Below, piece by piece: positions 35,120-64,000 of a stretch of 64,000 nucleotides of DNA. The position numbers were made by a program, and so were the translations under genes. Under the pieces are notes generated by a model that saw nothing but the letters and a program-made list of their open reading frames with translations, searched no databases and was not told the DNA's origin. Each line of letters begins with the position of its first letter. Position 1 is the first letter of the stretch. The stretch comes from Thermoplasmata archaeon. GTDB taxonomy: Archaea; Thermoplasmatota; E2; JACPAO01; JAHFTW01. The stretch covers positions 217,937 to 281,936 of the forward strand of contig JAXDQS010000010.1 in NCBI GenBank assembly GCA_034667725.1, read 5' to 3'.

Positions 35120-35177
35120 AGGCGGGGTCGCGCCCGGCCTCCGATTTAATCATTTGCGCTCTGGGCCAGTGTTGGAC

Positions 35178-38100
35178 ATGGGCTGCAAACGGTCAAGAAG
35201 GCACGGCGGTCGCTGGGCCTTGACAATGGTCGTCCACCGCTTGTCCCCGCTCGCCGCTGCCTTCATCCTGGCAGTCTCCACCCTCGCCGCCGCGCCGGCG
35301 TCGGCCCTCATCGTCGGCCCCGTCGGCCCCATCGACCCCGACCTCATCAACGTAGACTGCGAGGACAGTGCCGCCGTTAGGGCCGCCTGCAACGCGGTGG
35401 CCACCCTCACGGAGGACCCTGGCGAGATCACCGTCGGGTGCGGCGACGGGTACGCCGGCAACGCCTGCCGCGAAGCCTTGGACACCCTCGAGGACCCGCC
35501 CGCGGCCTGCGAGGCCGTCACGTTCGCGATCTGCGAGGCGGTGGCCCGGCTGCTGGCCGACGACGGCGGCGACCCCGTCGGCCAGTGCCTGCACGACCTC
35601 GGCTTCGACACCGTCGTGATGCCCCAGCCCGGCACCAGCATCGTCAACCTGGACTGCTCGCAGCTTGGCGAGACCCTGGCGAGCCTCTACGTCATCCTGG
35701 ACAACCTGGCGGCGCGGGGCGGCGCCACCCTGAACTCCTGCCTGGCGCTGTTGGGCGACGGCATTGCCAACCTGGAGTCGAGCGGCCCGCCACTGGTGGA
35801 TTGCGAAGGCCTCGGCGAGACCGCCCGCGACACCGTCCAGGCCGCCATGGACCTGGTGGACCGCGAAGCCGACGACGCCATGCGCACCGTCGAGGCGTGC
35901 GTCTACGGCGCGCCCCCGCCGTCCGCCGGCGCCGCGCTGTGCCGCTCCCTCTACAACACGCTCGTCCTCTACCTCGCCTTCGCCGTCCAGACCGGCCTCC
36001 AGGCGGCCAACCACCAGCTTGAGTGCCAAGGCCTCGACACCGTCTCCATCACGGCGCCCGCCCCCGAGGGCGACCCGCCCGCCACCTTCGGCCTGCCGGA
36101 GGAGTGCGTGACCGCCCACCTGCTCTTGACCGCCGTCCAGGAGGCCGTCGCCAACGTGCTGCGCATCGCCGGCGACCTCGCGCCCTCCGTCTCGCTCTGT
36201 GTCGCCGAGGTCCCCGGCGGCCCCACCACCGTCACCCTCGACTGCCGCTACGTCGAGCGCGTCGTGCGCACCGTCGGCGACGCCGAGGCCACCGTCATGC
36301 TCGTCGTGCAGCAATACCTCGACGACTGCCAAGGCCGCGGCGCGCCCCCCGAGGGCCTGCCGAGCTGCCGCGAGCAGGTCGAGAACCTGCAGCGCATCGT
36401 GGACCGCAACTTCGCCGGCGCCTGGCGTGCCGCCCAGGAAGCCGCCGCCGACCTGCAGGCCTGCGCCGCGGCCGCCGCCGCGAGCACCTGCGCGGCCACG
36501 CAAGACTGCGCCCTGCTGCCCTGCGTCCTGCCCGGCGCCTGCGACACCGGCTGCGCCAGCAACGGCACCACCTCCTACCCGGCGCGCGCCAACGGCACCG
36601 CCACCGACGCCCGCATCGGCAACGTCTTCGAGTTCGTGGCCCCCGTCACGGGCGCCGCGGTCCCGGTCGACGTCCACGACTACGACGGGGACGGCATCCC
36701 CGACCTGCTGGACCCCGTCAACCTCCCCTCCGAGACCCTGCGCACGACCTCCGGCGCCGACAACCTGACGCTGCTGGACGGCCTCGGCGAGCAAGGCTTC
36801 GTCCTCTTGATCGAGCCCGGCCACCGGGAGGCCCAGCTCGTGGCCGCCGACCCGCTCGGCGTGGCCCTGTCGCTGCTGCCCGTCGAGGTGCTCGACGCCG
36901 CCACCACCCTCCAGCTTTTGGGCCAGACCCACGGCGGCCACGTCGCCGACCTGCTGGCCAGCGCCCTCAACGAGAACATGACGGTGAACGTCACCTGGGT
37001 CGTCCCGCAGCTGCCCACCGTCGTCCCCCTGCATTGGGCCGGCGGCGCCATCCCCGCCGACGGCAGCTGGCTCATGGCCCGCTCCGACCCGACCCGCCGC
37101 GTCACGTTGGCGCTCTCCGGCCTTGACGTCAAGCTGGAGGCCCCCAGCGCCAGCCACGCCAGCACCGACCCCGACCTGTCGTACCGCTGGGAGTTCCTCA
37201 ACCTCTGGGGCAAGAAGGGCTTCTGCTTCGACCCCACCACCTACACCGGCGGCACCGGCCAGTGCGAAGGCAAGGCCGAGCCCGGCTGGCTGCGCGCCTA
37301 CAGCGGCCGCGCCCACTACGCCCTCCAGGCCGTCGCCGAGAACCTGGAGCGCGGCCTGTCCGACCTGGCGGCGACCCCGGCGGGCACCAACGGCACCGCC
37401 CTGGAGCCCATCCTGGCGCCGACCGAGGGCCTGCGCGGCGACGAGGTCCCCGCCGACGCCATCGACCTGTTCGACCCCTCCTCGCTGGTGCACGCCATCG
37501 GCGACAACAGCACCTCGTTCCCGCCCGGCGTCGGCGTCGACTACCAGGTCCCGGCCCGCGAGCCGCGCTCCCTGCCGCGCCCCGCCATCCTGCAAGCCCC
37601 CGACGCCCTGCTCACGACCGACGTGGACCTGTCGGCCTACCGCCCGACGCGCACCTTCCGCTTCGACGCCCAGTTCTACGAGACCCCCGGCACGCCGCGC
37701 GACCTGCAGCTGCTGACGCTGCACATCACGCCGGCCGACGGCAACGACGCCGCCCAGACCTTCGTGCTCGACGGCCGCGCCTTCACGGAGTACCTGCGCC
37801 TGCTGCCCGGCGAGCAGCTCGCCCTCGATATCGACGCCGATCACTTGGACGGCTTCGTCCAGGTCTCCAAGGACGTCAACGCCGACGGCTGGGAGGACCT
37901 CGTCGTGCAGGTGCCCCACTTCAGCACCGTCACCATGGACGTCCACAGCGACAACTCGATCGCCTACCCCATGTGGACCATGGTCAAGATGACCAGCGCC
38001 ACCGAGGGCTGGCTCACCGGCCCTTACGGCGCCATGTACAAGTACAGCGCCGGCCGCGTCTACCGTCACGACATCCCCGGCCTCGCGGGCCAGATGCGCT

Positions 38101-41100
38101 CCATCGCGCTGCACGTCGTCGGCCCCAACGACGTCTGGGTGGCGGGCGACGGCGACTGCAACCTCGCCGACCCGTCGCCGTTCATCGCCCACTACTACTA
38201 CGGCAGCTGGAGCATCTTCCGCACGTCGCAGGTCGGCCCCGGCTGGGCCTGCGAGGGCTTCATCACCATCTGGATGGACCCCACCGGCTCCTTCGGCTAC
38301 GCGGGCGGCACCGACGGCATGTGGTTCAAGTACGCCAGCGGCGCGTGGAACCCCGCCCCCAGCCCCGCGCCCGGCGCCTGCGTCCGCGACATCGCCTTCG
38401 ACAGCAGCGGCCGCGGCTACGTCGGCGCCAACACCGACTTGTGCCTGGCCAGCGGCCGCCCCGCCATCAGTTACTGGGACGGCAGCTCGTGGAGCAGCCA
38501 CAGCACCTACGGCAGCACCGAGATCTGGAGCGTCATGGACGGCTCCGGCCAATGGGCCGCCGCCATTCCCAAGGACCCGGCCACCCACGGCATCCTGCAA
38601 CAGTCCGGCTCGTCCTGGTCCCTCGCCTCCGTCCCCGTTCCGGCGGGCCATTACTACGGCATGACGCGCGCGCCCGACAGCCGCCTCTGGTTCAGCGCCA
38701 CCGACCGCAGCAACCGCGGCTTCCTGGTCGAACGCGACCCGTCCGGCACCTGGACGACGCACTGGTTCCAGACCCGCATCGGCTTCCTGCGCGACGTCTC
38801 GATGTCGTCCAGCACGGCGGGCCTCGTCGTCGGCGACAAGAACATCCTGGCCATCCAGGTCTCGTCGGCCGCCGCCGCCTCCGCCGACTGGATCTGGGAC
38901 AGCCTGTCGCCGACCTCCGGCACCACCAGCACGACGTTCGCCGGCCGCGACTCCGGCACCCGCGACCCCGACAGCGGCAGCGGCACCGTCGCGCACACCT
39001 GGAACTGGGGCGACGGCTCGGCCAACGACCTGGCCGCCAACGCCGACCACGTCTACCAGGCGCCCGGCACCTACGCCGTCACCCACCAGGTGCGTGCCAG
39101 CAGCACCGGCCAGGCCAACGCGCACGGCTGGACCGTCACGGTGAACCCCCAGTCCACCAGCATCGGCCCCAGCACCTCGGACTCGCTGCCCGCCGGCACC
39201 CGCGTGGCCCCGAAGTACTACCAGTACACCAACGCGGCCAGCGACGGCCAGGCGCATGACTTCCGCGTCGTGCTCGGCGGCGCTGCCGGCGTCAAGATGA
39301 CGATCCGCAAGGGCACCGGCATGGGCGACTTCAGCGCCGGCGGCAACTGGCCCAACTACGGCGCCGCCGGCCGCGACCTGTCCGGCCCCATCGCCTACGG
39401 CCAGTCCATCACCATCCGGGTCGAGCAGGACACCAGCGTGAGCCCCTACGGCGGCTCCTACACCCTCACGGTGACGCAGCTGCCGCCCCCGCCCAACCCG
39501 GCCTTGAGCAGCCTGGTGCCGCAGCCGATGGAGGCGCTGACCCGCGGCTACGAGGAGCTGACGTTCCGCGTCACCTGGACCGACACGCAAGGCTACCAGC
39601 CCCGCGACGCCAGCGGCGCCACCAGCCCGCCCACCATCACGCTGGACACCAACGGCGACGGCGCCCTGGAGACCTACTCCATGCACCTGGACCGGCCGCT
39701 GTTCACCGGCTCCACCTACAAGGCGATCTACTCGTACTCGACCTACCTCAAGGAAGGCAGCGGCACCCAGCCGATCTACAAGGCTTGGGACACGCAGCCC
39801 TACCAGCAGGTCGCCACCGGCGCCTGGATCTACGCCCGCGCCACCGTCCTCAAGGCCTACGACTTCGAGGCCGACGCCGTCGACCGCCTCCCGGCAGGCT
39901 TCGCCAACGTCCCGCTGGCCGGCCACCCGGTGAGCTACTGGCACGTCACCGACACCGCCAAGGCGGGCACGCCCGACCGCGTCGCCTTCGGCGCGCACGG
40001 CAAGGCCCTCTGGTTCGGCCAGGAGTCCTCCGGGAACTACGTCGACGCCGACGGCCGCGCCCCGGGCGGCGCCCTCGAGACGCCGGTGCACGACCTGAAC
40101 CGCATGGACAAGCCGGTGCTGTCGTTCGCGTCGCTCTACGAGACCCAGGACGACGGCAGCAGCATCGACGTCAAGCAGGTCCACATCAAGGCCCGCGACC
40201 CCGGCGGCGTCTGGGGCGGCTGGGTGCTGCTGCAGGCCGTCCACGGCCCCGGCTTCCTGCCCGGCCGCTGGAACACCGTGGCCGCCAGCCTCGCCGACTA
40301 CGCCGGCAAGGAGGTCGTGCTGCGCTTCCAGTTCCAGGCCGACAACGCCAACAACGGCTACCTCGGCTGGTACGTCGACGACATCGTGCTCGGCAGCGAC
40401 GCCGACGGCGACCTGATCCCCGACCTGAAGGAGGCCAACCGCGTCATCGGGCTCCGCAACGGCGCCGTCGGCCCCGTCAACGTCGCCCCCGGCCAGACCG
40501 GCGCCAGCTACGTCAACCGCGTCAGCACCTCCGGCTTCCAGGGTGTCGTCGCCGAGGCCGTCCTCTACTCCGAGCGGCCGCAGGACCTGCGCGTCGAGCT
40601 GCTGGTGCCGCCGGCGGGCACGCTCCCCGGCGACTTCCCCGCGCTCACGACCGAATTCCGGCCGTTCAAGCTGAACCCGGCCGCGGCGCCCGCCACCGAC
40701 ACGGTGTGCGGCGTCACCAGCCCGGTGCGCAACTCCCTGTCGCCCTGGTACGCGACCTACCCGAACCTGCTCTTGGACCCCGCCACCGGCTTCGACAACC
40801 CCCGCATCGGCGGCGGCTTCGGCCCCGACTCGCGCCCGACCGTCGTGCCGATCCACGCCCTGGAGTTCAAGCGGGTCGACGGCGTCGGCCTTGCCATCAA
40901 GGCGGACCTCACCGAATGCCTCAAGGCCGCCGGCTTGAGCGAGTTCGGCGTCCACGACGTCGTGCTGCGCGTCCAGAACACCGCCGCCTCCGGCACCGCG
41001 ACCATCGAGTCGTTCGCGGTCACCGGCGTCGGCCGGTCGTCGATGTTCAGCGCCCGCAGCGCCGCCATCGGCATGGGCGACTACCGCGCCAGCGACGGCG

Positions 41101-42806
41101 GCTGGCTGGGCGGCGGCACGCCGCTGGGCCCCGACGCCGACTGGGACGGCATGGCGCGCGGCGAGGACGGCAACGACATGGTGCCGACCTACGTGCCGTT
41201 GGTCTTCGTCGACTACAACAAGCCCGAGGAGGGCCTGCAGTTCGCCCTCGACAGCAAGCGCGTCGTGCTGTCCGTCGACATCCTGGCCACCACCGGCACC
41301 ACCACGCGCGACGTCGCGACCCCGGTGGCCCAGGCCTACGGCGAGTGGCGCAACTACGTCCTGCCGGCCAGCCGGTTCGCCGGCGCCGACAGCCTGCGCA
41401 TCGTCGTCAGCCTGGCCGGCGGCTCGGTCATGACCATCGAGGCGGCCTTCAAGGACCGCCAGCCGCAGCTGGCCAGCCTCACCGAGTCCTTCCTGGCCGA
41501 CCCCGGCAACCCCTCGCCGGAGCCTGGCAGCCACTACCTGACCGACGCCGAGCGCAACCTCGGCTACATCATGGGCGGCGCCAAGGCCCTCTACTGGGTC
41601 TACAAGGCGGGCAAGCTCATCACGGGCGTCGGGGCCGCCGAGACCGCCCTCGAAGGGGCCACCCTGGTCGTCAAGACCGTCGGCAAGTGGGCCATCGTCA
41701 AGGTCGCCAAGGAGGGCCTCAAGTCGGCCTACGCCTCCAGTGGCGAGCTCACCATCTACGAGAAGACCTCGCGCCACAACATCTACAAGGGCCGGACCTC
41801 GCGCGGCGACTACCCCGAGGTCTACGACCTCTTGGACGAGGCCATCACCAACGCCCAAGGCCCGTACCCCACCATCGGCGGCAACAACGTCTGGTTCTAC
41901 GAGAAGGCGGTGGACCCGTCGACGGGCGCCATCGCCAAGCTCTACGTGCTGGAGACCCGCCAGGACGGCGACCTGTTCCGCGGCTGGGGCCACTCGCTTG
42001 CCAGCTGGGGCCAGATGGTGTCGCGGCCCTACACGGCCGGCGCGGACGCCAACACCGTCCACGCCACCGACGTCTCGGACATCCAGAGCATCGAGCGGCT
42101 GGCCAAGGTCGCCGGCCCGTACCCGAGCTTCGGGAGCTTCCTGTGCGCCGTCACTTGCTATGCCGAGGTGGACGGCGACCCCGGCCGCGTCCACCTGCAA
42201 GCCTACGGCGTCAACTGGGACAACCGCCACGACAGCAAGCTCGACGTCGACGCCGGCTGGGTCACGGCGGCGCGCTACGCCGCCTACCGCCCGAACTCGT
42301 GGGTGCCTTCCATCAACGAGGGCCAGCGCGACCTCCAGCTCGCGGGCTGGATCCGGTCGTACCGCTTCATCCACGACAACGGCGTCCACGCCTCGGCCTC
42401 GCAGGACGCGAAGGCCTTCTGGGGCGACGACTACGCCTCGAACCCAGGATGCGCTGCCGAGACCACGCGCCGCTGCCAGGCGCCGACCGCGACCTTCGAC
42501 GGCCACGGCGTCTTCGCCCAGGGCTTCACCCTGCGCTGGACGACCTCGTCGAGCCCCACGGTCCTCAAGACCGACAAGGCGGCCAGCTTCGGCCTCTACA
42601 CCAACTCCGACCGCGGGCCCTGGGATGGCCGCTCCGGCATCGAAAAGAGGCGCGACACCCTGGCGACGTCGCTCGGCACCCCGGGCTCCGGCCATGACGC
42701 GAACCTCATCCTGGCGCTCGACGCCAGCGGCGCCACCTGGGAGGACGACCACTACTACCCAGAGTACGGCCCGCACACCTTGGAGGAGTTCTACGACGTC
42801 CCGTAG
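35178..42806 (+). CDS. Giant secreted multidomain protein (~2540 aa)
   Basis: Single uninterrupted frame. Signal peptide, Cys-rich helical N-terminal ~450 aa, propeller-like W/Y/G-rich repeats, a PKD-like domain (TVAHTWNWGDGSANDLAANADHVYQAPGTYAVTHQV), a GWYVDDIVLG motif and a ~600-aa K/Y/I-rich C-terminal module. The antisense ORF is low-complexity. Confidence 0.7.
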   Translation: MGCKRSRRHGGRWALTMVVHRLSPLAAAFILAVSTLAAAPASALIVGPVGPIDPDLINVDCEDSAAVRAACNAVATLTEDPGEITVGCGDGYAGNACREALDTLEDPPAACEAVTFAICEAVARLLADDGGDPVGQCLHDLGFDTVVMPQPGTSIVNLDCSQLGETLASLYVILDNLAARGGATLNSCLALLGDGIANLESSGPPLVDCEGLGETARDTVQAAMDLVDREADDAMRTVEACVYGAPPPSAGAALCRSLYNTLVLYLAFAVQTGLQAANHQLECQGLDTVSITAPAPEGDPPATFGLPEECVTAHLLLTAVQEAVANVLRIAGDLAPSVSLCVAEVPGGPTTVTLDCRYVERVVRTVGDAEATVMLVVQQYLDDCQGRGAPPEGLPSCREQVENLQRIVDRNFAGAWRAAQEAAADLQACAAAAAASTCAATQDCALLPCVLPGACDTGCASNGTTSYPARANGTATDARIGNVFEFVAPVTGAAVPVDVHDYDGDGIPDLLDPVNLPSETLRTTSGADNLTLLDGLGEQGFVLLIEPGHREAQLVAADPLGVALSLLPVEVLDAATTLQLLGQTHGGHVADLLASALNENMTVNVTWVVPQLPTVVPLHWAGGAIPADGSWLMARSDPTRRVTLALSGLDVKLEAPSASHASTDPDLSYRWEFLNLWGKKGFCFDPTTYTGGTGQCEGKAEPGWLRAYSGRAHYALQAVAENLERGLSDLAATPAGTNGTALEPILAPTEGLRGDEVPADAIDLFDPSSLVHAIGDNSTSFPPGVGVDYQVPAREPRSLPRPAILQAPDALLTTDVDLSAYRPTRTFRFDAQFYETPGTPRDLQLLTLHITPADGNDAAQTFVLDGRAFTEYLRLLPGEQLALDIDADHLDGFVQVSKDVNADGWEDLVVQVPHFSTVTMDVHSDNSIAYPMWTMVKMTSATEGWLTGPYGAMYKYSAGRVYRHDIPGLAGQMRSIALHVVGPNDVWVAGDGDCNLADPSPFIAHYYYGSWSIFRTSQVGPGWACEGFITIWMDPTGSFGYAGGTDGMWFKYASGAWNPAPSPAPGACVRDIAFDSSGRGYVGANTDLCLASGRPAISYWDGSSWSSHSTYGSTEIWSVMDGSGQWAAAIPKDPATHGILQQSGSSWSLASVPVPAGHYYGMTRAPDSRLWFSATDRSNRGFLVERDPSGTWTTHWFQTRIGFLRDVSMSSSTAGLVVGDKNILAIQVSSAAAASADWIWDSLSPTSGTTSTTFAGRDSGTRDPDSGSGTVAHTWNWGDGSANDLAANADHVYQAPGTYAVTHQVRASSTGQANAHGWTVTVNPQSTSIGPSTSDSLPAGTRVAPKYYQYTNAASDGQAHDFRVVLGGAAGVKMTIRKGTGMGDFSAGGNWPNYGAAGRDLSGPIAYGQSITIRVEQDTSVSPYGGSYTLTVTQLPPPPNPALSSLVPQPMEALTRGYEELTFRVTWTDTQGYQPRDASGATSPPTITLDTNGDGALETYSMHLDRPLFTGSTYKAIYSYSTYLKEGSGTQPIYKAWDTQPYQQVATGAWIYARATVLKAYDFEADAVDRLPAGFANVPLAGHPVSYWHVTDTAKAGTPDRVAFGAHGKALWFGQESSGNYVDADGRAPGGALETPVHDLNRMDKPVLSFASLYETQDDGSSIDVKQVHIKARDPGGVWGGWVLLQAVHGPGFLPGRWNTVAASLADYAGKEVVLRFQFQADNANNGYLGWYVDDIVLGSDADGDLIPDLKEANRVIGLRNGAVGPVNVAPGQTGASYVNRVSTSGFQGVVAEAVLYSERPQDLRVELLVPPAGTLPGDFPALTTEFRPFKLNPAAAPATDTVCGVTSPVRNSLSPWYATYPNLLLDPATGFDNPRIGGGFGPDSRPTVVPIHALEFKRVDGVGLAIKADLTECLKAAGLSEFGVHDVVLRVQNTAASGTATIESFAVTGVGRSSMFSARSAAIGMGDYRASDGGWLGGGTPLGPDADWDGMARGEDGNDMVPTYVPLVFVDYNKPEEGLQFALDSKRVVLSVDILATTGTTTRDVATPVAQAYGEWRNYVLPASRFAGADSLRIVVSLAGGSVMTIEAAFKDRQPQLASLTESFLADPGNPSPEPGSHYLTDAERNLGYIMGGAKALYWVYKAGKLITGVGAAETALEGATLVVKTVGKWAIVKVAKEGLKSAYASSGELTIYEKTSRHNIYKGRTSRGDYPEVYDLLDEAITNAQGPYPTIGGNNVWFYEKAVDPSTGAIAKLYVLETRQDGDLFRGWGHSLASWGQMVSRPYTAGADANTVHATDVSDIQSIERLAKVAGPYPSFGSFLCAVTCYAEVDGDPGRVHLQAYGVNWDNRHDSKLDVDAGWVTAARYAAYRPNSWVPSINEGQRDLQLAGWIRSYRFIHDNGVHASASQDAKAFWGDDYASNPGCAAETTRRCQAPTATFDGHGVFAQGFTLRWTTSSSPTVLKTDKAASFGLYTNSDRGPWDGRSGIEKRRDTLATSLGTPGSGHDANLILALDASGATWEDDHYYPEYGPHTLEEFYDVP

Positions 42807-55681: not shown

Positions 55682-56671
55682 CTAGAGCAGGCCCGCCTTC
55701 TGCAGCGTCAGCAGGTCCTCGGTGGAGAGCTTCTCGCCCTTCTTGAAGCGCTGGAACACCATCTCCGCCGCCGCCTCGTTCTTGGCCTGGGTGGCCGCCG
55801 AGGGCTGCCCGCCGCCGTGCTGGCCGGTGGCGTCCTCGATCTCGTGGATGGCGTTGACGAACTGGATGTACGTCTTGTGAATCTCGTCCGCCTCCATCTT
55901 GGCGACGACGAACTTCTCCTGGAGCTTGTCCGCCTTCTTGCGGAGCTTGTCGGACTCCTTGTAGAGCTTGATCATGGCGTCGTGCTCCGACTGGGCCTTC
56001 TCCGCCATCTCGCCGACCTTGGCGTGCGCCTTCTCGGCCTTCTCCTTGAGCTCCTCCGCCTTCTCCAGGCTGGCCTTCAGCTCGGGGTCGGCGCGCAGCA
56101 GCTTCTCCTTCTCGCGGATGAGCTTGCCGATCTCCTTGAGGCGCTCCATCAGCGCCTTCTCCTTGGCGACCGTCAGCACCGAGGTCATCTGCTGGAACTC
56201 GAGCTGCTTGGCCTCCTTCTTGAGCTTCGCGACCGTCAGGGTGGCGTCGCCCTCGGGCATCCGGGTGCGCCGCAGCACCTCCGCGGACTTCTGCGCCTCG
56301 TCGGCCGCCCGGTTGGCCTCGTCCCGCAGCTCCTTCGAGCGCTTGACGCCCTCGTTCATCTCGTCGCGGCGCTTCTTGTGCTCGTTGGCCTGGTTCACGA
56401 GCCCGCGGACCTCTGCGTTGTAGGTGTCGCGCTCCTCGGCGTGCTTGCGCGCCTCGTCGTTGAGGCGGTCGCGCTCGCGCCGGAGCATGTTGGCGCGGCT
56501 CTGGAGGTCCTCCTTCTTCATGCCGGGCTTGGGCCCGTTGGGGTTCGGCTTGGGAGGCTCGGGGGTCGCCTCGACGGGGGCGGCCGCGGTCTCGGTCTCA
56601 GGGGCTTCGGGCGCGGGGGGCGACTCGGGCGCCGGCGGCGCCGCCGAGGCCACATCGGTGGTCTCACTCAT
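55682..56671 (-). CDS. Archaeal coiled-coil protein
   Basis: ~330 aa. Pro/Ala-rich N-terminus, long K/E/R-rich heptad region, conserved-looking C-terminus (VFQRFKKGEKLSTEDLLTLQKAGLL). The ORF-track frame extends antisense through the next gene and is a run-on. Confidence 0.55.
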   Translation of the reverse strand: MSETTDVASAAPPAPESPPAPEAPETETAAAPVEATPEPPKPNPNGPKPGMKKEDLQSRANMLRRERDRLNDEARKHAEERDTYNAEVRGLVNQANEHKKRRDEMNEGVKRSKELRDEANRAADEAQKSAEVLRRTRMPEGDATLTVAKLKKEAKQLEFQQMTSVLTVAKEKALMERLKEIGKLIREKEKLLRADPELKASLEKAEELKEKAEKAHAKVGEMAEKAQSEHDAMIKLYKESDKLRKKADKLQEKFVVAKMEADEIHKTYIQFVNAIHEIEDATGQHGGGQPSAATQAKNEAAAEMVFQRFKKGEKLSTEDLLTLQKAGLL

Positions 56672-56897: not shown

Positions 56898-57154
56898 TCC
56901 AGTCGGCGGTGCGCGACGGGCCAGCGGCTCCAGGCGACCTGCACGGCCTTCGGTCCAACCCCCCTCGTGCCGCGCCACCGTCTCCGCGTACAGCTCCAGC
57001 TGCCGCAACAGCCGCCCGGCCGTGCCATGCGACAGGCCGCCCCGTTCGCGCCCCGCCCCCCCAACCTCGCGCGTGGCCCCAGCAACGGGAACCCCAAGCC
57101 CAAGGCCGAAAGTCGTAGCCGGCCCGCTGTCCGCCCAGGACGCCGCCTGCAATG

Positions 57155-57162
57155 CTTTATTT
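57155..57162 (+). promoter_or_regulatory. TATA-like box (within hairpin CCTGCAAtgctttatTTGCAGG), leaderless spacing to the ATG at 57188
   Basis: ctttattt centred ~30 nt upstream of the ATG that begins the signal peptide. Confidence 0.35.
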
Positions 57163-57187
57163 GCAGGACAGGGTGGTGACGCCCAGA

Positions 57188-59221
57188 ATGACATCGTCTG
57201 CCGCCTGGGCCGCCTTCGGCGTCCTGGCCGCCCTTGCCGCCACCGGCATCGTCCTGTTGGCGACCCCCGCCGAGGCCGCGGTCATCCTGGAGCCGGCCGG
57301 CCCGCTGGAGCAAATCCACATCTCGCGCTCCAAGACGCTCGACTGCCAGGTGATGTACATCGGCACGGTGTACAGCTTCCCCGGCAGCGAGGCGGACGGC
57401 GAGTTCTGGGGCGTCGGCTCGGGCTCGTGCGGCACTTTCCTGCACGTGGTGGGCGACCAGACCTACGGCCCGCCGGTCGAAGGCTACGGCCCGCCCTACA
57501 TGGCGGGCGGCATCCCGCCCACGCCCTACACGCCCGTCAGCCAGGTCGGCCCCACCGGCACCGGCACCGTCGCGGACCCGTGGACCATCGACACGGTGGC
57601 GCGCGCCGTCGGCCCCGGCACCTTGGTCGAGCTGCACCAGGTGGACGAGTACGTCAAGGGCGACGAGTACTACACCACCACCGTCACCGTCAGCAACCTC
57701 GGCGCCGCCGCGGTGGACCTCATCCTCTACCGCGCCGGCGACTGCTACCTCACCACCACGAGCGCGGACCCCGACTCGGGCTACGGCTACCTCGACGTCG
57801 CCAACCACACCGTGGCCTGCACCGAGACGCCCGGCGGCGCCACCGGCCGCATCATCGAGTGGGTGCCCCTCACGCCCGGCGCGCACGCCGAGCACAACGA
57901 GTGGGACGACATCTGGATGCGCCCGATGTACGGCGACGAGATGGCCGACACCTGCCTGTGCGCCACGTTCCTCGACAACGGCGCCGGCCTGAGCTGGGCG
58001 TTCAGCCTCGGCGTGGGCCAGGACAAGACCTACGCCAACAACAACGTGTTCTCGCCGACCGGCGTCCCGCCGCCCCCCGACCCGGACGTCCCGCCCGTCG
58101 CCCGCGCCACCGCCGCCCCCGGCGAGCGCACCTGCTTCTCGGCGCCGTTCTTCTTCAGCGGCACGGCCTCCACCGACTCCGACGGCACCATCGTCTCCTA
58201 CCTGTGGGACTTCGGCGACGGCTCCCCCGTCGGCGCGGGCGCCACCACCAGCCACGACTACCCCGCCGCCGGCACCTACACCGTGCGCCTCACGGTGACC
58301 GACGACGACAAGCTTGCGCACACGGTCACCTTCACCATCACGAGCCTCGGCGACACCGACTGCCCGTTCACGCTGCGGGTGTTCGACTCGACGGTGCGCG
58401 AGGGCGCCCTGCTGCGCTTCTGCATCCAGGCCGAGGACCTCGACGGCGGCGCGTTCACCTACGCCGCGACCTACCCCGGCGGCCTGCCGGCCGGCCTCGA
58501 GTTCGATGTCGCCGGCTGCCTCGACTGGACCCCCGCCCAAGGCCAGGCCGGCAAGTACGACTGCCTCACCTTCACGGCCATGCAGGGCGGCGGCCCCACC
58601 GGGGCGCCGTTCCAGACCGCCACCGACTGCGCCACCATCACCGTCGTGGCCGTCCCGCCCGTCCAGGCGACCGACGACACCGACATGGACGGGGTCGCCG
58701 ACGAGGCCGACAACTGCCCGTCGCACGTCAACCGCGACCAGGCCGACAGCGACCGCGACGGCCCCGGCGACGCCTGCGACCCCGTGGCGCCGCAGGCCCG
58801 CGACCCCAGCGTCCCGACGCGCAACCTCGCCGGCCCCGGCGACCAGGACGGCGACCGCGTCGCCGACCGCCTCGACAACTGCCCGGAGCGCCCGAACGCC
58901 TCGCAGGACGACCGCGACCGCGACGGCCTCGGCGACGGCTGCGACCCCGACGAGGACGGCGACGGCATCATCGTCGGCGGCCCCTTCACCGACAACTGCC
59001 CGCTCGCGGCGAACCGCGACCAGGCCGACGCCGACCGCGACGGCGTCGGCGACGCCTGCGACCTGGCCGGCGTGACGGCCGCGTTCGTGCCCGCGCGCGG
59101 CAACGAGCCCGCCCTGCACTCCGCCCGCGCCGGCCCCTCCGTGTGGCCGTGGGTCGCGGCGGCGGCGCTGGGCGCGCTGGCCGCGGCGGCCTTGGTGGCG
59201 GTCGTGCGCCGGCGGGCCTAG
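57188..59221 (+). CDS. Surface protein with PKD domain, Ig-like domain, TSP3 repeats and C-terminal TM anchor (paralogue 2)
   Basis: Signal peptide MTSSAAWAAFGVLAALAATGIVLLATPAEA; PKD motif (YLWDFGDGSPVGAGATTSHDYPAAGTYTVRLTV); CPxT...RFC Ig-like region; DxDxDGxxDxxDNCP repeats; C-terminus GPSVWPWVAAAALGALAAAALVAVVRRRA. Confidence 0.6.
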   Translation: MTSSAAWAAFGVLAALAATGIVLLATPAEAAVILEPAGPLEQIHISRSKTLDCQVMYIGTVYSFPGSEADGEFWGVGSGSCGTFLHVVGDQTYGPPVEGYGPPYMAGGIPPTPYTPVSQVGPTGTGTVADPWTIDTVARAVGPGTLVELHQVDEYVKGDEYYTTTVTVSNLGAAAVDLILYRAGDCYLTTTSADPDSGYGYLDVANHTVACTETPGGATGRIIEWVPLTPGAHAEHNEWDDIWMRPMYGDEMADTCLCATFLDNGAGLSWAFSLGVGQDKTYANNNVFSPTGVPPPPDPDVPPVARATAAPGERTCFSAPFFFSGTASTDSDGTIVSYLWDFGDGSPVGAGATTSHDYPAAGTYTVRLTVTDDDKLAHTVTFTITSLGDTDCPFTLRVFDSTVREGALLRFCIQAEDLDGGAFTYAATYPGGLPAGLEFDVAGCLDWTPAQGQAGKYDCLTFTAMQGGGPTGAPFQTATDCATITVVAVPPVQATDDTDMDGVADEADNCPSHVNRDQADSDRDGPGDACDPVAPQARDPSVPTRNLAGPGDQDGDRVADRLDNCPERPNASQDDRDRDGLGDGCDPDEDGDGIIVGGPFTDNCPLAANRDQADADRDGVGDACDLAGVTAAFVPARGNEPALHSARAGPSVWPWVAAAALGALAAAALVAVVRRRA

Positions 59222-59274
59222 GCCGGCAGCCCCCGGCGACAACCGTTAAGGGCGAAGGCCGCCGTCGGCCGCAT

Positions 59275-61125
59275 ATGCGCCTTGGCGCCATCCTTCCCGT
59301 CGCCCTCCTGGGCCTTGCCCTTCTCGCCGGCTGCACGCAGCCCGAAGCCGAGCCGCCCGTCGCCCAGGACGAGCCCCGCCTGGTGCCCGTCGCCGAGCGC
59401 AACGGCCTGCCGTACAACGTCACCGGCTACTACTCGCGCACCTTGGTGGACGGCGTCCTCGGGATGCTGCCCGTGGAGTCGGTGTTCGTCGACGTCGAGC
59501 TGCCCGCCACCGAGGGCGGCGCCGCCTTGATGGGCGGGGCCCGCGTCCACATGGGCCTGTGGCGCCCGAACGTGCCCGCCGGTACCAAGGTCCCCGTCAT
59601 CGCGGACATCGGCCCGTACTACGGCGACTCCGACGACCCCGCCGTGAGTCCGGCGCACCGCCTGGGCGGCTTCCTGATCGAGAACTTCGTCCCGCACGGC
59701 TACGCGGTGGCCCAAGTGTCGGTGTTCGGCTCCGGCCTCTCCAACCACTGCATGGACCTCATGGGCAACGCCGAGCAGCTCGGCATCGACGCCGCCGTCA
59801 CCTGGCTCGGCACCCAGGAGTGGTCCAACGGCAAGGTCGGCCTCGTCGGCCGCAGCTACGACGGCTCCACCCCATGGGAGGCCGCCACCTTCGGCAACGA
59901 GCACCTGGCCACCATCGTCCCGATCTCCGGCCTCATCGGCATGCACGACCTGATGTGGCGCAACGGCAGCGCCGAGACCCGCGGCCCCATCATGCACAAC
60001 GTCGTCTACGGCACCTTCGGCATCGACACGCCCGACCCCACCGGCCCCGAGGGCCCGCAGGTGGACGACGGCGAGATGGTGGAGAACCTCCAGACCCTCT
60101 GCCCCGACTACGTCGCCGGCCTGCCCGAGGGCGCTGGCGCCACCGTCACCGGCGACCAGGTCGTCCCCGCCGTCAACCCGTACTGGGCCGAGCGCAGCTT
60201 CCTGCCGCGCGCCCTTGCCAACTACAAGGGCTCGGTGTACCTCATCCACGGCCTGCAGGACTGGAACGTCGACCCGCACATGGCGTTCCCGACCTACCAG
60301 AAGCTAGAGGCCGCCGGCCTGGAGGTCAAGGGGCTGTTCGGCCAATGGAACCACATGTACCCCGACCGCCCCAGCGAGCACGTCAGCACCCCTGACGGCG
60401 AGGGCCACGAGGCCTACCCCGCCTCGGTGCGCTACGACTGGGCCCAGGACCTGCTGGAGTGGTTCGACCACTACCTCATGGGCGACCCGCTGGCGCCTGC
60501 CCTCCACGCCGAGGTGCAGGACAACCACGGCGCCTGGCGCGTCGAGGCCACCTACCCGCCCGCCGACGCCACCCCGCTGGCCATCGGCCTCGACGCCGCG
60601 ACCAGTGTTGCGCCCAATGGCGCCGCCGCCCCCGCCGGCCAGCCCATCGTCAGCCCGAACGACGGCATGGCCCTCGCGTTCGCGCCGCTTGCCGCCGACA
60701 CCCGCATCGCCGGCCTGCCCACCTTGCACGTCCAGGTCACACCCACCGGCCCCGGCGGCCAAATCTACGCCGAGCTGACCGACGTGGCGCCCGACGGCAA
60801 GACGCTGCGCCTCGGCCACGCCATCATGGATCTTCGGTTCGCCGCCGGCGGCACCGAGGCCCAGCCCGTCACCCCCGGCATGCCGCTCGTGGCCCGCATG
60901 GAGTTCGAGGCGTTCGACGCCGTCGTGCCCGCCGGCCACAGCCTCCGCCTGGAGCTGGCCGGCTTCGGCCGCGACTACCTGCCGAGCGCGGTGTCGGCGC
61001 CGGTGCTGGTGGACCTGTCGGCCGCCAGCGTGCTGACCCTGCCCACCATCGAGCGCGGCGCGGAGGCGTTCTTCACGCCGCCGGCGTGGTCGGGCGAGGC
61101 CGAGGCGACCGCGCAGGAACCGTAG
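59275..61125 (+). CDS. S15-family (CocE/NonD, X-Pro dipeptidyl-peptidase-like) hydrolase lipoprotein
   Basis: Lipobox LLAGC; GRSYDG nucleophile elbow (GxSYxG) in an alpha/beta-hydrolase context; C-terminal beta-sandwich region. Confidence 0.6.
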   Translation: MRLGAILPVALLGLALLAGCTQPEAEPPVAQDEPRLVPVAERNGLPYNVTGYYSRTLVDGVLGMLPVESVFVDVELPATEGGAALMGGARVHMGLWRPNVPAGTKVPVIADIGPYYGDSDDPAVSPAHRLGGFLIENFVPHGYAVAQVSVFGSGLSNHCMDLMGNAEQLGIDAAVTWLGTQEWSNGKVGLVGRSYDGSTPWEAATFGNEHLATIVPISGLIGMHDLMWRNGSAETRGPIMHNVVYGTFGIDTPDPTGPEGPQVDDGEMVENLQTLCPDYVAGLPEGAGATVTGDQVVPAVNPYWAERSFLPRALANYKGSVYLIHGLQDWNVDPHMAFPTYQKLEAAGLEVKGLFGQWNHMYPDRPSEHVSTPDGEGHEAYPASVRYDWAQDLLEWFDHYLMGDPLAPALHAEVQDNHGAWRVEATYPPADATPLAIGLDAATSVAPNGAAAPAGQPIVSPNDGMALAFAPLAADTRIAGLPTLHVQVTPTGPGGQIYAELTDVAPDGKTLRLGHAIMDLRFAAGGTEAQPVTPGMPLVARMEFEAFDAVVPAGHSLRLELAGFGRDYLPSAVSAPVLVDLSAASVLTLPTIERGAEAFFTPPAWSGEAEATAQEP

Positions 61126-61202
61126 CAAAAGGCAACGTTCTCGCAGGGTGCGCCGTCGCCTGCCTGCCAAGGTTCAAGAGCCGGAATCAAAATCCGGGGC
61201 TG

Positions 61203-63659
61203 TTGTCGCTTGGTCGGTGGCTGCTTGCCCTTGGGCTCGTGCTGCTCGGCGTCGCCGTGGCCGTCGAGGCGCGCGAGTACTGGACGGCCGACCTGCCGAC
61301 CTTCTGCGGCACCAAGGGCCCCACCATCGACCTCCTGAACCCGTCCCCCACGATCGCCACCGCCACCGTCACCACGGAAGGCATCTCGACGGTCTACGTG
61401 GTGCTGCCCGACTCGGCCTTCGTGATCAAGCCCGCGTCCCCGATCCCAGGCAGCGGCATCGGGGTCGCGGGCGTCTACCACATCGACACCGGGACGGGCC
61501 CTGTCGTGCCCCTGCTGGCCGGCGACGAGGTGCCGTCGTGCGGCGACGCCAACCGCATCCTGCCCACCGACGCCTTGGGCACCAACCACGTCCTCCACAC
61601 CTTCCCCGCGACCACCTACGCCACCGACCGCTCGTTCTTCACGGTCATCGCCACCGAGGACGACACCACCGTCGGCATCTTCCTGCAAGGCACCCCGACG
61701 ACGCCGGGCGGCGGCCTGCCTCCCATGGTCCCCGGCGTCAGCTACTCCTACGTCCTTGCCCGCGGCGTCGCGCTCACCGCAGTCTCCGGCCCCTCCACGG
61801 TGCTGGCGATGGCGGCGTTCGACGGCACCAACATCGTCTCCGACAAGCCCGTGAGCGTCTGGTCCGGCAACTTCCACAGCACCTACGGCATGGCCTCCGG
61901 CGGCGCGGACCAGATCTGGAACCAGCACCCGCCCACGCGGCTGTGGGGCACCGAGTACGTCGCCTGCTCCACCCTGGACCCGATGGTGCGCGCCAGCGGC
62001 ACCGAGCGGCTCCGGTTCGGCAACGCGTTCGTCCCGGCCACCGTCACCTTGGACCCGCCTCCCGTGGGCGCGGCAAGCGGCGTCTACGCCCTCGCCGCCA
62101 ACGCGTGGCTGGAGGTCAACGTCGACAGCAACACCCGCATCACCTCGACCGAGCCGATCCAGGCGCTGCACATCATGGTCCCCGACTCGCCGCCGCCGCT
62201 CGGCGACGTCGACATCCTGCCGCTGGCGCCGACCTCGCTCTGGACCGAGGAGCACCTGCTCTACGCCTCGCCCAACTACCCCGTGCGCCACCTCGCCATG
62301 GTGGTCCCGGCCGGCGGCGCCGCGGCGCTCGACGGCACCCTGGTCACGGGCGGCACCCCGGTCGGCGCCTCCGGCTACCGGTGCGCGCTCCAGCCGGTGG
62401 CGGCCGGCCTGCACCGCGTCACCGGCACCCAGCCGCTCGGCAACTGGATGATGGGCCAGACCCCGTTCTCCGGCTCCTACTGGTACGAGGACGCCGGCCT
62501 CCCCAAGGTGCTGCCGCCTCCGCCGCCGCCCCCGCCGCCCCGCCCGCCGGTGGCGGTGCCGGCCGTGGCCGGCGCGGGCACGAGCTGCGTGGACAGCGCC
62601 GTGCTGCTCACCGGCATCGCCTCGTTCGACCCCGACCTCGGCGGCACGGTCGTGGCGTGGGCGTGGGACTTCGGGGATGGCGTGAAGGGCGCCGGCAAGA
62701 CCGTCGCGCACGAGTACGCGCTCGCCGGCGATTACACCGTCACCCTCACCGTCACCGACAACGACGGCATGACGCACACGGCCACGCTCCTGGTCCACGT
62801 CGCCGTCGACGCCGACTGCCCCGCCACCCTCGTCACCGGCCATTCCTTGGTGCGCGAGCGCGACACCGTCCGGTTCTGTGTTGCCGCCAGCGACCCCGAC
62901 GGCGGCCCCTTCACCTTCACCCTCGCCTGGCCCGACGGCGAGCCCGCCGGCGTCACCTTCACGCCCGACGGCTGCCTCAGTTGGCGCACCTCCGTCGGCC
63001 AGGCCGGCTTCTACCCGTGCCTGCTGTTCACGGCCCTCGGACCCGGCGGCCCCGTGGCCGGCTGCGCCACCGTCGAGGTGCTGCCGTGGCCCCGCCCCGA
63101 TCCGACCCTCGACACCGACCTCGATGGCGTGGCCGACACTCAGGACAACTGTCCTTACGACGCCAACCGCGACCAGGCGGACGACGACCTCGACGGCCTC
63201 GGCGACCTGTGCGACCCGACGCCCCTGCGGCGCGACCTCGCCAATCCCGGTCCCGAACGGCTTGGCCGCGCCCGCGACGCCGACCGCGACGGCATCGCCG
63301 ACCCCGCCGACAACTGCCCGCTGGCGCCCAACACCTCGCAGGCCGACCGCGACCGCGACGGCGCCGGCGACGCCTGCGACCCGGACGCCGACGGCGACGG
63401 CGTCGCGACGGCGGGCGCGTTCCCCGACAACTGCCCCGACGCCGCCAACCCCGACCAGCGCGACGCCGACGCCAACGGCCACGGCGACGCCTGCGACGCC
63501 GCCGCGCCCGCCGCGCCGCGCGCCCTGGCGCGCGGCCGCGAGGCGGCGGCGTCGGTCGGCGGCGGCGCGCCGTGGGCCGTGGCGGCCGTCGGGCTGGGGG
63601 CGGCAGCGCCCCTGCTGGCGTGGGCCGTCGTGCGCCGCAAGTTCGCTGCCAAACCTTAA
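61203..63659 (+). CDS. Surface protein with PKD domain, Ig-like domain, TSP3 repeats and C-terminal TM anchor (paralogue 3)
   Basis: Probable TTG start giving a signal peptide (LSLGRWLLALGLVLLGVAVAVEA); PKD motif (AWAWDFGDGVKGAGKTVAHEYALAGDYTVTLTV); CPATL...RFC region; TSP3 repeats; C-terminus GAPWAVAAVGLGAAAPLLAWAVVRRKFAAKP. Confidence 0.55.
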   Translation: MSLGRWLLALGLVLLGVAVAVEAREYWTADLPTFCGTKGPTIDLLNPSPTIATATVTTEGISTVYVVLPDSAFVIKPASPIPGSGIGVAGVYHIDTGTGPVVPLLAGDEVPSCGDANRILPTDALGTNHVLHTFPATTYATDRSFFTVIATEDDTTVGIFLQGTPTTPGGGLPPMVPGVSYSYVLARGVALTAVSGPSTVLAMAAFDGTNIVSDKPVSVWSGNFHSTYGMASGGADQIWNQHPPTRLWGTEYVACSTLDPMVRASGTERLRFGNAFVPATVTLDPPPVGAASGVYALAANAWLEVNVDSNTRITSTEPIQALHIMVPDSPPPLGDVDILPLAPTSLWTEEHLLYASPNYPVRHLAMVVPAGGAAALDGTLVTGGTPVGASGYRCALQPVAAGLHRVTGTQPLGNWMMGQTPFSGSYWYEDAGLPKVLPPPPPPPPPRPPVAVPAVAGAGTSCVDSAVLLTGIASFDPDLGGTVVAWAWDFGDGVKGAGKTVAHEYALAGDYTVTLTVTDNDGMTHTATLLVHVAVDADCPATLVTGHSLVRERDTVRFCVAASDPDGGPFTFTLAWPDGEPAGVTFTPDGCLSWRTSVGQAGFYPCLLFTALGPGGPVAGCATVEVLPWPRPDPTLDTDLDGVADTQDNCPYDANRDQADDDLDGLGDLCDPTPLRRDLANPGPERLGRARDADRDGIADPADNCPLAPNTSQADRDRDGAGDACDPDADGDGVATAGAFPDNCPDAANPDQRDADANGHGDACDAAAPAAPRALARGREAAASVGGGAPWAVAAVGLGAAAPLLAWAVVRRKFAAKP

Positions 63660-63686
63660 GCCGCCATCAAAGTCGGTAGGGGCGTC

Positions 63687-64000
63687 ATGCGTGCCGCGCT
63701 CCTGGCCTTGCTGTTGAGCCTCCCGTTGGCGACCGCCAGCCTCGTCCCCGTCCTGCCCAGCGCGGTCCCGGACACGCCGCTGGCTTCGGTTGCGCCGCCA
63801 GCGCCCCCGGCCATGCCCACCCTGGCGGACCTGCTGGCCGACCCCAACGTCGGGCCCGTGCTGCGCACGACGCCGGGCGTCCGCGGCCTCGAGCGCCTCC
63901 AGGCCAGCGCGCAGGCGGAAGGCAGCGAGCCCGCCCCCGCGCCCGCCACCGACCTTGGCGCCGACGGCCTCCAGCTCGCCTGGCTCCAGGCGTTCCTTGG
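63687..64000 (+). CDS. Secreted hypothetical protein, 3'-partial (continues beyond window)
   Basis: ATG followed by signal peptide MRAALLALLLSLPLATASLVP; frame stays open to the window end. Confidence 0.3.
   Translation, partial: MRAALLALLLSLPLATASLVPVLPSAVPDTPLASVAPPAPPAMPTLADLLADPNVGPVLRTTPGVRGLERLQASAQAEGSEPAPAPATDLGADGLQLAWLQAFL

Follow-up and report, generated by a model that had tools for sequence, protein, structure and literature searches.

A lipobox-bearing S15/CocE-NonD hydrolase gene within a row of cell-surface genes in a Thermoplasmata archaeon

Introduction

A 64,000-nucleotide stretch of the genome of a soil-type, high-GC Thermoplasmata archaeon (GCA_034667725.1, contig JAXDQS010000010.1, positions 217,937 to 281,936; hereafter, the window) carries near its end a gene for a hydrolase of the S15 family (gene B) between two genes for anchored proteins with PKD and TSP3 domains (genes A and C). 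The window corresponds to the metagenome contig 3300044738 Ga0467041_0000015 (369 kb) of the Joint Genome Institute, and its proteins are listed at NCBI as "MAG: Thermoplasmata archaeon". Do these three genes form a functional module, such as the extracellular peptide-scavenging or protein-processing unit proposed in the initial annotation, or are they merely neighbors? Our analysis points to the latter. The region is probably a run of four same-strand cell-surface genes that have evolved independently of one another, with no dedicated module.

The basic arrangement was as first described: A, B and C all lie on the plus strand, with the two anchored PKD/TSP3 proteins flanking the lipoprotein gene (Table 1). 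The row of surface genes runs on into a fourth gene, D, and thus the boundary at position 63659 in the initial annotation reflects the edge of the window. The intergenic gaps are 53 bp (A-B), 77 bp (B-C) and 27 bp (C-D). The products of all four genes are predicted to be on the cell exterior, in agreement with the extracellular placement previously assigned to those of A, B and C.

Gene order around S15 homologues

To examine synteny, we used the 80 best genome loci with a B homologue from other species, with up to 10 kb on each side, and searched them by tblastn (E ≤ 1e-2). No A-like, C-like or D-like gene was detected within 10 kb of the B homologue at any of the 80 loci, and a search of 84 related loci with A, C, D and the other neighbors likewise gave no match for A, C or D. 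The reverse comparison, starting from A or C, yielded no usable orthologues, as the head of A reached at most 41% identity and C was matched via its PKD domain only. Thus, with no A-like or C-like gene beside B homologues and no close orthologues of A and C elsewhere, the three-gene functional module proposed for this locus is not borne out by gene order; non-conserved synteny is the outcome that the initial annotation had named as refuting it.

B itself belongs to a large family. We found 2285 homologues, and 546 genome stretches encode a relative. The top homologues with a named source were all from Thermoplasmatota, Poseidoniales or "Euryarchaeota". Judged from this distribution, Thermoplasmatota and Poseidoniales have B as a core hydrolase of the cell surface.

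The surroundings of individual homologues were as follows. An ABC (ATP-binding cassette) transporter pair lies downstream of P0010 (66% identity to B), and ABC transporter pairs lie downstream of P0011 (63%). P0006 (64%) has a radical-SAM (S-adenosylmethionine) gene upstream and a second S15 gene 5 kb off. Small genes without annotation accompany P0003 (70%), and a small gene without annotation, followed by a helix-turn-helix regulator gene, accompanies P0009 (66%). In Poseidoniales, the recurrent neighbors of the B homologue are genes for thioredoxin, a MutS-like protein, Cys-tRNA ligase, an epimerase and an M32 carboxypeptidase.

The most informative case is the nearest relative in which the row is framed alike, the Thermoplasmatota metagenome-assembled genome (MAG) SMAG_U14304 (L003/L086). 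Here, both genes that frame the A-B-C-D row have orthologues: the upstream DUF7121 gene (76% identity) and the downstream gene for a 163-amino acid protein (87% identity). Between them are three tandem S15/PepX_C paralogues of 620, 627 and 654 amino acids (L086 8047-13940, DATLBS010000001.1). Since this S15 trio stands in place of A-B-C-D, the S15 gene appears to be the stable occupant of a variable slot.

No tRNA gene and no compositional break, which would mark an island, were found around the region; the GC content within the window ranges from 66 to 78%. At third codon positions, A, B and C have a GC content (GC3) of 96-99%, similar to that of housekeeping genes. Thus, there is no sign of recent import.

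Two further observations were made in the synteny set. The gene for the M32 (Taq-type) carboxypeptidase lies upstream of the S15 gene, on the opposite strand, in about 22 of the 80 loci (Poseidoniales; for example, L005 7399-8910). This adjacency may be due to common descent or to a genuine pairing of peptidases. In addition, two contigs titled as bacterial MAGs, L028 (CAXRAI010000078.1, "Salinimicrobium sp.") and L063 (CALDQY010000011.1, "Rhodobiaceae bacterium"), carry an S15 gene that, like those of the Poseidoniales loci, is 50% identical to B. These contigs are probably binning contamination.

Gene B encodes an S15/CocE-NonD hydrolase with an intact triad

The middle gene had been assigned to the S15 and CocE/NonD hydrolases from its GxSYxG nucleophile elbow. 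Profile searches confirmed this assignment. The B protein matched Peptidase_S15 (PF02129) with 138.3 bits (cutoff 23) and PepX_C (PF08530) with 74.2 bits (cutoff 22.5), and it scored 124.5 bits against TIGR00976 (CocE_NonD; cutoff 66.3), the sole NCBIfam model that it passed. The elbow reads GRSYDG.

The catalytic residues were examined in an alignment of B and 39 homologues (40 sequences in total, 50-82% identity to B). Ser194, Asp329 and His360 are invariant. So are the other elbow residues G192, Y195, D196 and G197, residues Q328, N331 and V332 in HGLQDWNV, residues G356, Q357 and W358 in GQWxH, and two tyrosines, Y115 and Y116. The acidic residues D161, E167, E234, D364 and D388 are invariant as well. 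Among the 120 best database matches, which were used for all motif counts in this family, GxSYDG was present in 119, QD[WT]NV in 116 and GQWxH in 118. In the profile of the B family, Ser194 aligns on the GKSYLG elbow of Lactococcus lactis PepX (chain 1lns), and Asp329 aligns with residue 468 of the same chain, within an identical HGLQDWNV motif. His360, placed by motif and position only, is 31 residues past Asp329 and follows the last core strand, the canonical position in an alpha/beta-hydrolase. From these alignments, B carries an intact Ser194-Asp329-His360 triad in the correct order, as the initial annotation had required of a genuine member, and its membership in the S15 family is secure.

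The AlphaFold (AF2) model of B has a predicted local distance difference test score (pLDDT) of 85 and a predicted template modeling (TM) score of 0.86. It consists of an alpha/beta-hydrolase domain, a helical insert and a jelly-roll C-domain. When the model was compared with solved structures by Foldseek, all solved S15 members matched, with TM-scores of 0.57-0.71, E-values of 1e-24 to 1e-28 and 14-19% identity. The matches include cocaine esterase, PepX from two lactic acid bacteria, a Staphylococcus CocE/NonD protein, lipase 8yzn, alpha-amino acid ester hydrolases (AEH) and the archaeal aminopeptidase 4pf1.

The C-terminal tail of B, FFTPPAWSGEAEATAQEP (61069-61122), is outside the folded domain and is modeled with a pLDDT below 50. 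The form PPxWxGxAxA of this tail was found in 31 of the 120 homologues; it could be a tag for sorting, glycosylation or interaction.

The lipobox is conserved in the B family

The N-terminus of B is MRLGAILPVALLGLALLAGC. It contains the lipobox L17-A18-G19-C20, in support of the earlier description of B as a lipoprotein. G19 and C20 are conserved in at least 90% of the 40 aligned sequences. In the 120 homologues, the strict motif was present in 81 and a relaxed, Cys-containing motif in 103. Six homologues of the Poseidoniales type have no Cys and seem to retain an uncleaved signal anchor. Thioether-archaeol lipid is attached to lipobox proteins of Haloferax via AliA/AliB (PMC12462473). The signal peptide of B likewise ends in [LVI][ASTVI][GAS]C, and the Cys is conserved across the B family; lipidation was demonstrated in Haloferax only, and the six homologues mentioned above do not possess the Cys. 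As predicted from these motifs, tethering to the surface is a conserved trait of the B family, and B itself is probably lipidated at Cys20.

Genes A, C and E encode modular stalk proteins

The two flanking proteins had been described as paralogues. This holds for their C-terminal stalks, which are 52% identical over 310 amino acids (E = 4e-79), the similarity being confined to the PKD, He_PIG and TSP3 region. It does not hold for their heads, which are unrelated to each other. Both proteins begin with a hydrophobic signal peptide, and the predicted mature N-termini are AVILEP in A and REYWTA in C. In Pfam searches, A matched PKD_4 (74 bits), He_PIG (40.5 bits) and TSP_3 (64 bits, in three stretches). 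C matched IgGFc_binding (PF17517; 124 bits, cutoff 25.6), PKD_4 (69.4 bits) and TSP_3 (69.6 bits), whereas its He_PIG match, with 21.5 bits, was under the cutoff of 24. The TSP3 regions of A and C also matched cartilage oligomeric matrix protein (COMP; E = 9e-34) and thrombospondin-2 (E = 1e-28), and their PKD domains matched the PKD domains of clostridial collagenase.

At the DNA level, cognate TSP3 units of the A and C stalks are 71-80% identical, and long identical tracts, which recent gene conversion between the stalks would leave, were not found in a repeat search. Thus, the duplication of the stalk is old. A third stalk paralogue, gene E, is located 36 kb upstream, so that at least three stalk paralogues (A, C and E) are present in the window. 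Profile comparison of the A head gave probabilities of 2.8% against the E head and 0.2% against the C head, neither of which is significant. The neighbors of E are a Na+/H+ exchanger gene, a gene for an anchored protein without annotation and a weakly bactofilin-like gene. Directly before E, at 17794-19233 on the plus strand, is a gene for a 479-amino acid secreted, C-terminally anchored protein without a Pfam match.

The AF2 model of the A head has a pLDDT of 81. In the Foldseek search, it matched cellobiose phosphorylase (glycoside hydrolase family 94, GH94), a GH116 glucosidase, the periplasmic domain P1 of YidC and aldose epimerase with query-based TM-scores (TMq) of 0.44-0.48. Its fold is like the beta-supersandwich found at the N-terminus of GH94 phosphorylases and GH116 glucosidases, a weak hint that the head may possibly bind glycans. 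The sequence search with the A head returned 64 proteins of at most 41% identity, about 14 of which contain DUF11 repeats; A itself was missing from the matches. The few homologues with a named source are all bacterial (Acidimicrobiales, Solirubrobacteraceae and Bifidobacteriaceae), which hints at an inter-domain origin of this Cys-rich head. As for C, no full-length relative besides C itself was found among 5.8 billion clustered proteins, the others being matched via the PKD domain only, and the sequence of the C head had no match in the PDB. We found no literature specific to TSP3/PKD proteins in Thermoplasmatota. From their sequences, A and C belong to a modular stalk family that is lineage-specific, and they are most likely adhesins or ligand-binding proteins.

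Two other assignments for these proteins were considered and rejected. NCBI names C (P0185) a "trimeric autotransporter adhesin". This name is a misnomer: the only Pfam domains are IgGFc_binding, PKD, He_PIG and TSP_3, and a trimeric autotransporter of the YadA type, with a beta-barrel anchor, is rejected because the archaeal host has no outer membrane and no such Pfam domain is present. Myxobacterial MtsC (NF047638) with MYXO-CTERM was the other candidate. A and C scored 106 and 95 bits, respectively, against a cutoff of 350, over the TSP3 region only, and MYXO-CTERM was not matched. For archaeosortase signals (PGF-CTERM and related), NCBIfam models gave no match with A or C at E ≤ 0.01, although such short signal models are insensitive. 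The tails of A and C have no common PGF-like motif.

Weighing of alternative explanations

The favored reading of the B sequence is that of an exopeptidase, and we consider it rather likely, because the Asp motif is PepX-like, the Xaa-Pro dipeptidyl-peptidase subfamily model NF003780 gave the best full-length NCBIfam alignment (171 bits, residues 68-593), and the proteolytic Poseidoniales share the B family. The alternative is a surface esterase, lipase or alpha-amino acid ester hydrolase of the CocE/NonD type that acts on non-peptide esters and is no peptidase. It would explain why CocE_NonD is the only NCBIfam model that B passes and why CocE heads both the Foldseek and the phmmer matches, with lipase 8yzn and AEH nearly equal to CocE in Foldseek; the B family is also named "predicted acyl esterase" by the Joint Genome Institute (JGI). 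We nevertheless judge this alternative rather unlikely, given that L. lactis PepX has exactly the same HGLQDWNV motif, that NF003780 yields the best full-length alignment, that 4pf1, the only archaeal S15 structure among the PDB matches, is described as an aminopeptidase, and that the host clade is described as proteolytic, the lifestyle of Poseidoniales being amino-acid-dependent (PMC6461757). Foldseek gave no separation of the peptidase from the esterase relatives of B, and we found nothing specific in the literature on S15 or Xaa-Pro dipeptidyl peptidases in Marine Group II.

Whatever B cleaves, its relation to its neighbors could be closer than we suppose. In a young, lineage-specific scavenging unit, particles of protein or glycan would be captured at the cell surface by the adhesins A and C together with D, the propeller protein, and the peptides set free would be trimmed by B, co-transcribed with the others, before their uptake. 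The common strand, the short gaps, the lack of an oligo-T terminator and the predicted surface display of all four products would fit such a unit, as would the amino-acid permease gene within the window and the likeness of the A head to carbohydrate-binding supersandwich domains. This explanation is nonetheless unlikely. The arrangement was not conserved in the 80 genomes or in any contig examined, S15 paralogues fill the slots in SMAG_U14304, which shares the flanking genes, and the third stalk paralogue, E, has no hydrolase neighbor. Moreover, each of A, B and D is preceded by an AT-rich box of its own, at about -28, and A and C possess no protease-related or substrate-delivery domain. It is highly improbable that B is instead the maturation protease of A and C, for example, trimming their N-termini after removal of the signal peptide. 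Adjacency and the common extracellular location are all that speaks for this role, whereas B is conserved in hundreds of genomes without A and C, and neither predicted mature N-terminus (AVILEP or REYWTA) has an Xaa-Pro start. To our knowledge, S15 enzymes are exopeptidases or esterases and not processing endopeptidases (MEROPS S15), which also counts against this role.

Independent evolution of the four genes, with B as a probable exopeptidase, remains our preferred interpretation, and several observations weigh against it. The arrangement is seen in one genome only, and a young, lineage-specific functional association is compatible with non-conservation. A to D are co-oriented, with the short gaps given above and no T run; co-transcription is possible, and co-expression could make a functional link more plausible. 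As for the activity of B, its model matches the peptidase structures no better than those of the esterase CocE, the lipase 8yzn and the acylase-type AEH. In addition, B is far under all NCBIfam cutoffs for Xaa-Pro dipeptidyl-peptidases proper: it scored 171 bits against a cutoff of 642 and 66 against 711 for the subfamily models NF003780 and NF003782, and 48.5 against 881 and 37.6 against 988 for the equivalog models NF003781 and NF003783. Finally, the A head matches known folds only weakly (TMq < 0.5).

Transcription signals and gene starts

The sequence ahead of the genes was inspected by eye for AT-rich boxes, the host being an archaeon. Boxes at about -28 were found for A, B and D (Table 1), which suggests leaderless transcripts with their own TATA boxes. 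The box CTTTATTTG ahead of A is inside the longer gene call of JGI, which starts at ATG 57152. Thus, 57188 is favored as the true start of A, and 57152 is probably too far upstream. On the plus strand, no run of four or more T was found from 56901 to 64000, so that transcriptional read-through is possible. A further box, CTATAA, is located ahead of a start codon at L001 19658-19666; similar boxes precede further nearby genes. The boxes are about 28-30 nt from the start codons, in DNA that otherwise has 72% GC.

The NCBI model of C (P0185, 61239-63659; 806 amino acids) starts 12 codons downstream of the TTG start adopted here. With that start, the signal peptide would be cut into.

Comparison with known proteins

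PepX is a cytoplasmic enzyme, and CocE is an intracellular esterase. B resembles PepX of L. lactis and Lactobacillus helveticus (MEROPS S15; 1lns, 6nff) in the combination of an alpha/beta-hydrolase domain with a PepX_C beta-sandwich, in the GxSYxG elbow and the identical HGLQDWNV, and in the order and spacing of Ser, Asp and His (Foldseek TMq 0.64-0.66). In contrast, the two share 15% identity, and B, with 616 amino acids compared with 763-813, is without about 150-200 extra N-terminal and helical residues. B is also far under the equivalog cutoffs, and it has a signal peptide and a lipobox. With CocE of Rhodococcus and the CocE/NonD family (TIGR00976; 1ju3, 3i2h, 3ib3), B shares the size and the three-part architecture, the top rank in Foldseek and phmmer, and a score above the family cutoff. 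The differences are the low identity (17-19%), the predicted surface anchoring of B and its PepX-like Asp motif. 4pf1, from a marine-sediment archaeon ("Peptidase S15/CocE/NonD"), has an archaeal S15 fold (TMq 0.57-0.59) and is called an aminopeptidase by its depositors, which fits the idea of extracellular protein degradation by archaea. However, it is 14-15% identical to B, its profile E-value is 2.7e-4, and its source is in a different phylum.

The stalks of A and C are comparable to the type-3 "wire" of thrombospondin and COMP and to bacterial TSP3 surface proteins such as MtsC. They share the tandem calcium-binding repeats DxDxDGxxDxxDNC with paired cysteines, and the stalk adjoins a C-terminal membrane or sorting segment. 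Unlike these proteins, A and C are archaeal, and their TSP3 repeats are joined to PKD, He_PIG and variable heads.

Features of the region and neighboring genes

The coordinates of the features are listed in Table 1. Beyond the DUF7121 gene, further upstream and on the same strand as it, are genes for a 122-amino acid membrane-like protein and a TtuA-type tRNA thiolation enzyme. Elsewhere in the window, the plus strand contains an open frame of about 2620 amino acids (34935-42806) with a GC3 of 0.97, which is of the coding type, and a single weak PKD_4 match. This frame may encode a giant surface protein.

Table 1. Positions of genes, domains, catalytic codons and candidate promoter boxes in the window
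Feature	Position	Strand	Description
Gene E	19266-21383	+	Third stalk paralogue (PKD, He_PIG, TSP3, anchor); 40-45% identity; different head
DUF7121 gene	55682-56671	-	Upstream of A; 329-amino acid coiled-coil protein; DUF7121 143 bits
AT-rich box CTTTATTTG	57155-57163	+	About 28 nt before ATG 57188; candidate archaeal TATA box of a leaderless A transcript
Gene A	57188-59221	+	677 amino acids; ATG start; signal peptide, head of about 300 amino acids, PKD, He_PIG, TSP3 repeats, C-terminal membrane anchor
Head of A	57278-58087	+	No Pfam family; predicted beta-supersandwich
Stalk of A	58088-59149	+	PKD (residues 302-385), He_PIG (398-476), five DxDxDG calcium-binding TSP3 motifs (497-630)
C-terminal anchor of A	59150-59218	+	Hydrophobic helix, then RRRA tail
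GTTAAG box	59245-59250	+	About 28 nt before the B start; candidate own promoter
Gene B	59275-61125	+	616 amino acids; lipobox-bearing S15/CocE-NonD serine hydrolase
Lipobox of B (L17-A18-G19-C20)	59323-59334	+	Fits the consensus [LVI][ASTVI][GAS]-Cys
Ser194 codon of B	59854-59856	+	Nucleophile in the GRSYDG elbow (G192-R-S194-Y-D-G197); invariant in 40 sequences
Asp329 codon of B	60259-60261	+	In HGLQDWNV; invariant in 40 sequences
His360 codon of B	60352-60354	+	In GQWNH; invariant in 40 sequences
PepX_C domain of B	60511-60975	+	Beta-sandwich, residues 413-567 (Pfam)
Gene C	61203-63659	+	818 amino acids; TTG start; signal peptide, IgGFc_binding-type head, PKD, weak He_PIG, TSP3, C-terminal anchor
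Head of C	61548-62456	+	IgGFc_binding (Pfam PF17517)
Stalk of C	62529-63557	+	Paralogous to the stalk of A
C-terminal anchor of C	63558-63656	+	Hydrophobic helix, then RRK tail
CTTAAG box	63648-63653	+	AT-rich box about 28-30 nt ahead of the D start
Gene D	63687-64000 (cut by the window end)	+	945 amino acids in the full contig (L001 14413-17250); secreted, PQQ_2/FG-GAP beta-propeller repeats, C-terminal anchor

Discussion

The following picture would account for the locus. B would be its ancestral resident. The protein would be exported by a Sec-type signal peptide and then probably be held at the external side of the membrane by a lipid on Cys20, which would, as in archaea, be a thioether-linked archaeol added by AliA-type enzymes. 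Catalysis would depend on Ser194, Asp329 and His360 in the alpha/beta-hydrolase fold with its PepX_C beta-sandwich. The most likely job of B would be to trim amino acids or dipeptides off the N-termini of extracellular peptides; such trimming may feed the proteolytic, amino-acid-dependent lifestyle that has been described for Poseidoniales, a related order with the same gene. In A, C and E, the shared stalk of PKD, Ig-like He_PIG and calcium-binding TSP3 domains would hold an interchangeable head off the membrane; the head of A has the look of a carbohydrate-binding supersandwich, and that of C is of the IgGFc_binding type. A and C would have reached the flanks of B as genes turned over at this variable locus, where the relative has tandem S15 copies in the slot.

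A more far-reaching version of this picture can be imagined. In soil Thermoplasmatota, the DUF7121 gene and the 163-amino acid gene would enclose a hot spot at which surface genes turn over. Here, S15 tandems would be swapped for an undescribed stalk family with exchangeable heads, a part of which had been acquired from bacteria, and in this lineage the adhesins and the peptidase would be co-expressed as a particle-binding and peptide-trimming unit. We regard this combination as quite improbable.

Our results reveal no new system, and the members of the row are of known protein kinds. They correct the annotated start codon of A and the naming of C as a "trimeric autotransporter adhesin", and they document an archaeal family of predicted tail-anchored proteins in which a thrombospondin-type calcium-binding stalk carries interchangeable heads. 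In addition, the S15/CocE-NonD hydrolase of Poseidoniales and other Thermoplasmatota has a conserved lipobox and is thus probably a lipid-anchored ecto-enzyme. Such an enzyme would bear on extracellular protein degradation by these abundant archaea.

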